Positions 9,001-12,000 of a DNA stretch of 21,358 bases are shown here, in pieces. The stretch's first letter is position 1. Each line of letters begins with the position of its first letter. The stretch lies in the NCBI RefSeq assembly GCF_003334765.1, contig NZ_QOWT01000048.1; one strand, given 5' to 3'. Made by a program: the position numbers. Source of the stretch: Escherichia coli. GTDB lineage: Bacteria > Pseudomonadota > Gammaproteobacteria > Enterobacterales > Enterobacteriaceae.

Positions 9001-12000
9001 CGGGCAATATTACATCCTGAAAGTGCAGCAGTTCATGCACACGGTTCGACGGCTAGTCATTGATCTTCATAATTACCTCGCGTAAAAACGGGGTAAGGAC
9101 GCTCATCCAGCGTCATCTCCACAGGTAATAATTCAACGCCAATTCCAGAAGAATTCGTTAGCGGAAGACGCCGTGATATACGCCCTTTGATCAGCCAGAT
9201 CCTGAGCCATTTGAACAGAAGATTATCATTGATATCGTGCTCCCGGGCAATACGGGCAACAGAATCCCTTGGTTGTAAAGCCAGTTTAACCATTTGAAGT
9301 TTAAACTCATTTGAAAAGTAAGCGCCCCGAGAAGTACGTGGCGTAAGGATTATTTTACAGCCGAGAGGTTCCAGGGCAGCAGTTCATGCACACGGTTTGA
9401 CGGCCAGTCATTGATTTTCCTGATCACTTCCAGTGTTAACATAAACCGCCGTATGCGGAGCCGCATGTACGGTGGTGTGAGAGGACGGCGGGAGTTATCC
9501 CTCCTCCTACTCGATCCCGCTCATGCTGGCGTACCCAGACATGCAGAGTCTCCGGTGTACAGCCAATCTTTGGGGCAATGGAACAAATTACCGCCCATTG
9601 TGAGTCATATTCGCCCTGACTTTCCAGAACCATACGAATCGCCCTATGACTGACTTCGGGGGAAAAACGAGTATTTTTAGTCATCCTGTTTACCTCTTTC
9701 TCTGGAAGGTTAGTCTCCAGGATTTCCGGGACGGTTCAGTTTACGTGTTTTTTGGCTGGTTGATACTGTTTTTGTCATGTGAGTCACCTCTGACTGAGAG
9801 TCTACTCACTTAGCCGCATGTCCACTATTGCTGGGTAAAATCAAATCATTAATATCTCTGCATAACGTGCAGGGGATGCTCCACAGCATTAAGTGCATAT
9901 ATTTATACTAAGTTTAGTCACACAGATTTCGATTATTATCATAAACTTATAATTATATATCCCTTAGTTATTAATAGTCAGGTACATTATATATAATGTT
10001 TCCAATAACTGTACATGTCTGCGCCTGTAAGTGTGGCTGAGGATTCTTGTGTTATCATTCAACATGACAACTTTGCACTATTATCTAAAGGAGGCGCTCC
10101 TTAATATCATAGAAAATAGAAGACAGAATTTTGCATTTCTTGTTTTTTTATCTCTTAGCTTTATAGGGATAATTATTACTGACTCTTTGATATACAGTGT
10201 TTCCTTAAAAGCTGAAGAAGAACTAAAAGTTCATAGTGACAAGGTAATATTTGTTAAATTATATCGACCTAAAACGGTAGGATATATAACAGAAAAATTC
10301 ATTACGGTTAGTAAAGTTCTTTCTTTCTCGAAGAACGCATTCCTCTATGTCAGCGATACACCTTTTTCCGGTGAACTATTTTCGGTGAGCGGAATTGACA
10401 AGCTGGGATTGAACACGGAATATTCTGGAGATTTAAATGATAAGTACAATGGCAATGTTGCTATTGTTAATGAATCTAGTCCGTTTTTCAGTAAGAAACA
10501 AATATTTATTAATGGTGTTCCGTTTAAAATTATTGGTGTCAGATTAAACTCAAAAACGGATTTTCTTGACAGCCTTGGATTGAAAGCAAACCAATCAGAT
10601 GAACACATTTTCATTCCACTGGAAACTATGTTTAAAATGAAACTCGATAACAGAGTCAATGCTGTTAAAATCTTTCTTGATAACATAGTAACAAAGAGAG
10701 ATATAAACAACGTAAAGAGAGTTTTATATGACAATGATATAAGAAAATTCGATATTGTCACATCTTTAAACGCCAAGGAAGCTGTGGACAGAGTGTTAGA
10801 GCGGTTTTCATTACTCACTAACTCTGTATACGTGATATTAACTCTGTCTGCGTCCGTGACATGTTTTATTTTATCGAAACGCAGCTTTTATTCGAGACGG
10901 GTAGAGTTAGCATTAAAAATAATCCATGGTACAGAAAAGAAAGAGATTACAGTTCTAATTATCATTGAGTCATTAATAATGCTGAGCGTATGTCTTTTTA
11001 TTTCACTCATCCATGCAGGAGTAATAATGCATATTATTAAGTATTTTTTAGATGTAACAATAAGTATTAGGACAACAATGATTACAATATCACTTGCCAA
11101 TGTCCTATTGGTGTTTATATTTGCAAATATCATTTTCAGTAGGCTGTTTTTCAGCATTAACCCTGTTAATGCGATAAAAGGAAAGATCGAGTGAGACACA
11201 TATTATACTCATTTCTTGCAATAAATGCTTATCTGTTTTCGACACAGACTCTGGCGAAAGACTGTATCATTGATAATTTCTTTCAGAAAAGCATCCAGTT
11301 TAATTCTTATTCTCTTGATATCGAAGAGTTAGATATTAATAAACATAACAATATAAAAACGATGTTACCAGATATAAATATAGGGTTAGGGCAGTATATA
11401 AACAACAATCAATGGTTCTCATCTATTACAGACAGCCATTTTTATTTATCATTATCCTATAATCTTCTATCGGCTTATGAAGCAAAAATGCAGAATAATA
11501 AATTGGATATTGCTAATTATTTAAAATATATTGAAATGCTTAGTGAGAGGAACAACTACATAATTAATTTGTTCTCGGAAATTATTAACTATAAGATAAA
11601 AAAATCTCACCTGATGTTGATGCTCGAGAGATATAGGAAGCTCAATAAAGAATACGAAATTGCAAAGCGTAAAATGTCAATTGGATTAATATCTGCTCTT
11701 GATGTAGAGATGATATATAATATTTTACAAAAAATCAGGTTTGATATTGATGTCCTTGAGGAGGAGGAAAGTTTACTGTCAGATAAAATCTCGAGAGAAT
11801 ATCATGTTCCTGAGAGTGCAATCCCAGACATTACATATCATAAGTTAAAAGAGTGTAAAACAGCGGATTTCTATACATTATTAGCTGAAAACAAAAAACT
11901 CAAGATTAAGGCTGCTGATATAGATAATGATATAAGGAAACTATCTGAGATCCCATCTTTTTATTTATCATTTGGATTAACACCTAAACAAGGAGGTGCA

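Follow-up and report, generated by a model that had tools for sequence, protein, structure and literature searches.

The DNA analysed here, a 21,358-nucleotide window from Escherichia coli (contig NZ_QOWT01000048.1 of assembly GCF_003334765.1), comes from an enteroaggregative E. coli virulence plasmid of the pAA type, and the annotated genes around the region of interest are aggR, aap, aar and aatPABCD, with numerous broken insertion sequences (ISs) between them. About 550 nt upstream of aatP, and on the same strand, lies a short block at positions 9428–9515 of the window that is the 3′ end of a group II intron, joined on its left to the truncated tnpC gene of an IS66-family element and on its right to a truncated IS629-like element. 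RefSeq leaves the intron fragment unannotated, and describes the IS629-like piece as 'IS3 family transposase, missing C-terminus' and the tnpC piece as 'hypothetical protein, missing N-terminus'. The composite accounts for this transposase pseudogene upstream of the aat operon and also for an 82-codon open reading frame (ORF) at 9436–9684, which on translation is a chimera of orfA running into the reverse complement of the intron. The features of the composite are as follows:

9318–9430, minus strand: 3′ end of an IS66-family tnpC gene (the last ~26 codons, ...KINDWPSNRVHELLPWN... and stop) with downstream sequence, internally truncated at the intron remnant; 91% identical over 113 nt to the tnpC of comparison sequence L007.
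9428–9430, no strand: TTC microhomology at the join of the intron remnant and IS66, from a three-way alignment of the window, the L007 tnpC and the intron of E. coli 100416 (L002).
9428–9515, plus strand: 3′ remnant of an E.c.I6-type class C (IIC) intron, with the tail end of domain IV and of the intron-encoded protein (IEP) ORF, domain V and domain VI, ending ...CTACTCGAT; from Rfam and BLAST.
9445–9476, plus strand: domain V hairpin, with a 9-bp basal helix, a 2-nt bulge and a 4-bp distal helix, and CGC replacing the AGC triad; from the predicted fold and the Rfam alignment.
9478–9513, plus strand: domain VI, in which A9509 is bulged and a candidate branch point, and the stem has a C.T mismatch; from the predicted fold and alignment to relatives.
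9516–9738, minus strand: left end of an IS629-like element of the IS3 family, comprising codons 1–56 of orfA (ATG at 9684) and, up to 9738, the terminal inverted repeat TGAACCG...; from blastn and translation.

When the whole window was scanned against 4227 Rfam families, RF00029 (group II intron domains V/VI) matched positions 9444–9515 on the plus strand over the full model (1–77); the score, 47.2 bits, exceeds the gathering score (40), and the E-value is 1.2e-06. This covariance-model search bears out the domain V/VI assignment made in a first-pass annotation of the sequence, although the bounds given there (9441–9512) have to be corrected, as BLAST extends the intron homology to 9425/9428 on the left and it ends at 9515. 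Intron copies at four unrelated sites all end ...CTCGAT, and this common terminus, ...CTACTCGAT in full, therefore places the last intron base at 9515. The 88-nt RNA is predicted to fold into a canonical domain V and domain VI, with identical minimum free energy and centroid structures (−38 kcal/mol, z = −3.7). The bulged A at 9509 is 6 nt from the last intron base and the terminal bases are ...GAT; in group II introns generally the bulged A of domain VI lies 7–8 nt from the 3′ end and the intron ends in AY. The domain VI stem reads CCCTCC here and CCCGCC in relatives, which gives rise to the C.T mismatch.

Class C introns are described as having a domain V in which CGC replaces the AGC triad and the distal stem is shortened by 2 bp (Toor et al. 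2006, PMC1702495). Both hallmarks are present here, with CCGCCG lying under GAGCCG in the Rfam alignment and a 4-nt gap in the distal hairpin. By blastn, positions 9425–9515 are 92.3% identical over 91 nt to E.c.I6 of CFT073 (L008), with the same value for the copy in pTB222 (L003), and identity to other E. coli copies is 96.3% (96% to L002 and L004); alignment with the full-length relatives L002, L003 and L004 gives 94–96% across ~9425–9515, and an 85-nt query has matches in 933 E. coli records. E.c.I6 is listed as a class C intron of CFT073 at NC_004431 4320108–4321914 by Leclercq & Cordaux (2012, PMC3522654), and the locus of one of the relatives, between grpO and grpP, is this published position. 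Under the published naming rule, which asks for over 90% nucleotide identity with the reference copy (PMC3522654), the fragment is E.c.I6 at 92.3%, a value for which only the last 5% of the intron is comparable. The IEP of the full-length relative in pTB222 is 448 aa in length and contains RVT_1 and GIIM domains only, without an endonuclease; the IEP is missing from the fragment. These sequence comparisons make the fragment the 3′ end of a bacterial class C intron of the E.c.I6 type, from another lineage than the full intron that also resides in the window.

This resident intron (16144–18008, plus strand) is class-C-like. Immediately before it stands a terminator hairpin, aaagcccgtgggggcttttttatg, and both follow a truncated IS2-like orfA. 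The intron encodes an intact IEP of 450 aa (RVT_1 and GIIM, no endonuclease), an ORF that in pE1246_1 is interrupted by an internal stop; the triad position of its domain V is occupied by UGC, and RF00029 matches the intron at 17936–18008 with 38.7 bits, just under the gathering score.

Two other accounts of the block can be set against its assignment to E.c.I6, and both fare poorly. The first-pass annotation had described some 70 nt collinear with the 3′ end of the resident intron but belonging to a different copy with several substitutions, and the two do align collinearly, but local blastn gives 88% identity over just 42 nt (9444–9485 versus 17936–17977). Collinearity, and the fact that RF00029 matches both, could be taken to mean that the resident intron gave rise to the block by duplication with divergence or by gene conversion; but domain VI is far more diverged than domain V between the two, alignment to E.c.I6-type copies gives 92–96% over 91 nt, and full-length E.c.I6-type introns share only ~68–77% identity overall with the resident one. 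The fragment is thus a distinct homologue, as first described, but an E.c.I6-type one and not a diverged paralogue of the resident copy, and the alignments refute an origin by duplication from the latter. Still less credible is a chance similarity restricted to a GC-rich palindrome, even though domain V is indeed a GC-rich hairpin: the Rfam match lies above the gathering score with an E-value of 1.2e-06, the blastn match to E.c.I6 (E-value 4e-33) covers 91 nt that include the non-palindromic linker and domain VI, and the 80-nt intron end is shared by 933 E. coli records. The differences from the resident domain V consist of one compensatory change from G-C to A-U, one change from C-G to U.G and one loop base; such differences are to be expected between homologous ribozyme domains, and so speak for a separate homologue and not a GC-rich palindrome.

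The IS629-like piece to the right of the intron is 95.1% identical over 225 nt to an intact 1310-bp element in pHS30-1 (L006), which belongs to the IS3 family, has TGAACCGCCCCGGG ends and makes its transposase by programmed frameshifting. IS629 proper is defined by high nucleotide identity to its reference, IS3-type TG...CA ends and an orfA/orfB pair with a frameshift; the name is given here from sequence and length, not from ISfinder's reference, and 'IS629-like' is the safe label. Across the site the intact element reads ...GGTGGTGAgcccgccaTCACCGCCtccggtat/cccgctcatgctgg (also written ...caccgcctccggtat/cccgctcatgctgg; the slash marks the insertion point) and the window reads ...ctactcgat/cccgctcatgctgg; the empty site in the intact element consists of a hairpin, 8 nt, and then ...GGTAT/CCCGC. 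The blastn match to the IS extends to 9514 because the last two bases of the intron, AT, happen to fit the IS, and from the comparison with the intact element it follows that the IS stops exactly at the intron end (9516), save for these two ambiguous bases. The earlier observation that orfA stops matching exactly where the block begins thus holds, with a base-exact boundary, for the 3′, right-hand edge of the block, where the IS stops at 9516 and the intron ends at 9515. The intron is oriented antisense to orfA.

The left-hand junction is of a different kind. In the three-way alignment IS66 identity continues through 9430 and intron identity begins at 9425, with an imperfect overlap CA[C/G]TTC (5 of 6 positions) at 9425–9430; position 9427 is of the IS66 type and 9431 of the intron type, which places the crossover within the shared TTC at 9428–9430. 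Both partners are broken internally, and the join was therefore made by neither transposition nor splicing; it looks like a product of microhomology-mediated illegitimate recombination. Transposition of IS66 was considered as the cause of the truncation and rejected, the breakpoint being inside tnpC and not at an IS end. Sequence to the left of 9425 is IS66 tnpC, with no Rfam hits to intron domains I–IV (D1–D4) and no IEP near the fragment. We note that the window contains two copies of the IS66-family tnpC 3′ end, at 9022–9085 and 9370–9435 (a direct repeat of ~44 nt), the first of which is fused to a truncated IS66 tnpA-like ORF (9057–9293, minus strand) and abuts an S6-family autotransporter pseudogene; this arrangement indicates nested deletions in IS66 elements.

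The IS66–intron–IS629 composite is fixed in pAA-type plasmids. Plasmids of 44 complete E. coli genomes are 99.8–100% identical to positions 8900–10100, and in the plasmid set, PLSDB, the segment is present in 37 plasmids, including those of strain 55989 and of O104:H4 outbreak strains; an exact-pattern scan of metagenome contigs found the junction in eight, every one of which has the identical composite. Being identical in all of these genomes, plasmids and contigs, the composite is of single origin, and provides a clean lineage marker for the pAA-type plasmids of enteroaggregative E. coli, O104:H4 included. A chimeric 369-nt query (200 nt of intron and 169 nt of IS) turned up no longer or complete intron joined to the IS629 3′ exon in 5,426 complete E. 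coli genomes or in PLSDB, and none of the eight contigs has a longer version of the fragment. The sole full-coverage hit of this query, in pHS30-1, was discarded as a different arrangement, with an IS629-type element inside an intron.

A counterpart to the right-hand junction is present elsewhere. E. coli 100416 has a full-length E.c.I6-type intron that follows 75 nt of IS629 antisense sequence ending ...caccgcctccggtat/GTGCGCC (also written ...CCTCCGGTAT/GTGCGCC), at the same IS629 position as the 3′ junction of the window, and the same 5′ junction occurs in at least 25 other E. coli chromosomes among the matches listed. The two junctions are exact reciprocals with no target duplication, as expected of group II intron insertion, and the presence of the reciprocal 5′ junction at the same position implies that a complete intron once occupied the site. 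In the window itself the IS629 5′-exon side is missing; there is only another IS629-like left end at 1–163, which is 95.8% identical to the intact element, has the same orientation as the piece at 9516–9738 and is cut by the window edge. The IS629-antisense 5′ exon of E. coli 100416 (L002 1582–3903) is itself cut by IS21-type repeats, in a locus that is widespread in E. coli chromosomes.

The sequence of the original target can be reconstructed from pHS30-1 and E. coli 100416 as a hairpin, GGTGGTGA-gcccgcca-TCACCGCC, with a stem of 8–9 bp, separated from the insertion point by 8 nt. At the grp and bcs sites, E.c.I6-type copies follow strong terminator hairpins (DNA-fold z = −5.3 and −7.8) at a distance of 7–10 nt, and the resident intron is likewise placed after a terminator hairpin. 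The 5′ exons of three E.c.I6-type copies have a common T(A/G)T at positions −3 to −1, and an internal loop of domain I, located by Rfam alignment between both introns, reads AUAC in the E.c.I6-type copies and is a candidate for exon-binding site 1 (EBS1); this AUAC would pair over 4 bp with the GUAU of the IS629 site. Class C introns are found immediately past a terminator stem-loop or another inverted repeat; they recognize a 3–4 bp pairing of intron-binding site 1 (IBS1) with EBS1 together with a stem-loop, and have no EBS2 (PMC1702495; PMC4424553). With motifs as short as these, the IS629 site appears compatible with class C recognition through IBS1 and a stem-loop, and the hairpin and IBS1 may both have contributed to the choice of site.

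Taken together, the fragment is most probably a non-functional relic of an E.c.I6-type intron that inserted into the strand antisense to an IS629-like orfA and was later cut by illegitimate recombination at TTC. The intron would have entered by reverse splicing and reverse transcription between ...CCTCCGGTAT and CCCGCTCATG..., 8 nt past a hairpin resembling the terminator stem-loops usually targeted by its class, and would have killed the IS, because an antisense intron cannot leave the transposase mRNA by splicing. A single later recombination at TTC, presumably a deletion at the DNA level, would then have fused the intron at position ~1790 with the interior of tnpC, at the cost of ~1.79 kb of the intron (domains I–IV and the reverse-transcriptase gene), the ~1.1 kb that was left of the IS and the greater part of an IS66 element. 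The leftover domains V and VI (88 nt), which can neither splice nor move, would since have been handed down as mere passengers of the pAA lineage, in their place upstream of the aat operon. The first-pass proposal of an older intron insertion into the IS, followed by loss of most of the intron, is thus supported by the base-exact boundary and the reciprocal 5′ junction. It is refined in that the loss also took the whole 5′-exon side of the IS and ended at the TTC in tnpC, so that the join is an illegitimate-recombination junction and not a simple internal deletion of the intron.

Several observations count against this history. No intron with IS629 on both sides was found in the 5,426 complete genomes, PLSDB or the eight metagenome contigs, so that the undisrupted ancestor has to be pieced together from two half-sites that lie in different replicons, and the copy in E. 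coli 100416 has chimeric flanks, its 3′ exon being an unrelated IS110-family gene fragment. The order and mechanism of the deletion are past events that cannot be observed. The hairpin of the IS629 site has no T-run and folds as DNA with only −7.7 kcal/mol (z = −1.67, with 12 of 200 shuffles as good), and the argument from IBS1 and EBS1 involves just 3–4 nt and three sites. The chimeric flanks in E. coli 100416 suggest recombination between intron copies residing in different insertion sequences.

An exact 3′ junction combined with a 5′ join at microhomology is also the pattern of abortive target-primed reverse transcription, and group II intron reverse transcriptases readily switch templates; the intron could on these grounds have arrived already 5′-truncated, with reverse transcription aborted or switched after domains VI and V and the cDNA end joined at microhomology. 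The DNA to the left is, however, internal IS66 tnpC and not the IS629 5′ exon, which requires an extra rearrangement regardless, and the IS66 piece is antisense, so that switching template would call for a tnpC transcript in antisense; moreover, the exact IS629 5′ junction is known from a full-length copy, so complete insertion at this site does happen. Truncation on arrival is for these reasons improbable. A different question is whether the remnant has since been co-opted, for instance as a trans-acting domain V, as a structured RNA in front of the aat operon or as a decoy for the protein of the resident intron. Its retention in all pAA-type plasmids examined, its good predicted fold and its position ~550 nt upstream of aatP on the same strand could be read in this way, but the flanking junk is conserved equally, and conservation no greater than that of the surroundings points to recent common ancestry and not to selection. 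Position 9439 is A or G in contigs that show no other difference, and this polymorphism and the domain VI stem mismatch, a mark of decay relative to all relatives, argue against constraint; there is no terminator-like site in 9000–10100 and no promoter-like site inside the block, and the resident intron has a domain V of its own. Co-option therefore seems very improbable. The features of an active intron (domains I–IV, a 5′ GUGYG end and an IEP) are lacking, and the fragment is ordinary mobile-element debris with no sign of function.

The insertion followed by illegitimate recombination that we favor raises a broader, tentative idea, which we consider possible but doubtful: that E.c.I6-type introns recurrently use hairpins on the antisense strand of IS transposase genes as mimics of terminators, acting as unspliceable 'IS killers'. 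The IS629-like orfA described here, and an IS110-family and another IS3-family gene in related copies, may be examples. If so, the pAA fragment and the chromosomal IS629/intron 5′ junction would be two halves of such events, reshuffled by recombination between introns.

The fragment can be compared with several known systems. It resembles E.c.I6 itself (CFT073, ED1a, APEC O1 and S88; PMC3522654) in its last 91 nt (92%), its 3′ terminus ...CTACTCGAT, its CGC-triad domain V and a reconstructed target consisting of a hairpin followed by ...TAT, as at the grpO–grpP site of CFT073. It differs in that only the last 88–91 nt are left, and in its site, where the hairpin lies within a coding region, on the antisense strand of an IS, and lacks a T-run, whereas that of E.c.I6 is an intergenic Rho-independent terminator; the fragment would thereby offer an example of a class C intron that has such a coding-region hairpin as its target. 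With B.h.I1 of Bacillus halodurans, to which it is likened by way of the published description of class C introns (PMC1702495; PMC4424553), it shares the CGC triad and the distal stem shorter by 2 bp, and with class C introns in general a putative short IBS1, a candidate stem-loop at the place of IBS2 and, in its relatives, an IEP with RVT_1 and GIIM and no endonuclease; unlike these introns, the fragment cannot be active. Given the identity to E.c.I6, membership of the attC-specific sublineage (IIC-attC) is unlikely. IIC-attC introns lie antisense to cassette genes. Such introns (e.g. S.ma.I2; PMC4424553) are also of class C and have a non-terminator inverted repeat in mobile DNA as their target, but theirs is the stem-loop of an integron attC site, and here it would be a sequence of an IS3-family orfA.

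E.c.I4, which homes into IS629, IS911, ISEc16 and ISEc31 and has left a fragment, E.c.I4-tr1, in the K-12 prophage CP4-6 (PMC3522654), offers a parallel in setting, since it and its fragments are likewise a group II intron or remnant within an IS629-type transposase gene on E. coli mobile DNA. It was considered as the source and dropped, the fragment fitting class C E.c.I6, and E.c.I4, with a long sequence-specific homing site, appearing as class A in Table S2 of that paper (PMC3522654); the two are set apart by this listed class and not by alignment. Truncated group II introns amid other mobile DNA are the norm in bacteria (PMC4424553), and a survey of Enterobacteriales catalogued 55 distinct intron fragments with a length cut-off of 100 bp (PMC3522654), so that a fragment of less than 100 bp falls below its detection threshold. 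No plasmid of strain 55989 is named in the passages of its supplement that were consulted (PMC3522654). The fragment is thus newly recognised, yet unremarkable among the known truncated group II introns of E. coli, and of little biological consequence, being one more unannotated relic in the mobile DNA of this species.

Other E.c.I6-type remnants were encountered in the window and among the comparison sequences. A second orphan at 874–907 (plus strand; with flanks, 855–1098) contains domain VI only, is 94% identical to nt 1774–1807 of CFT073 E.c.I6, and is not reported by Rfam. It ends ...CTGCTCGAT/cgcccaaaac, and the 3′ sequence that follows, beginning exactly at 908, shares 88% identity with an IS3-family transposase pseudogene elsewhere. 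To its left it borders on an IS200 end. An Rfam match to STnc490 (the Hfq-binding RNA of the IS200 left end) at 729–853 on the minus strand (140.5 bits) marks an IS200 copy, and in pTB222 an E.c.I6-type intron abuts the same IS200 end. In p19KM2326_1 (L017 2533–2680) the first 37 nt of the intron are inverted and joined to its last 112 nt, after an autotransporter pseudogene. Two bcs-carrying plasmids (L018 and L019, 1673–2680) have a clean deletion of intron nt 754–1613 in which both ends are kept and most of the IEP ORF is gone, and this ORF-less derivative sits at the bcs site that in pTB222 holds the full copy.
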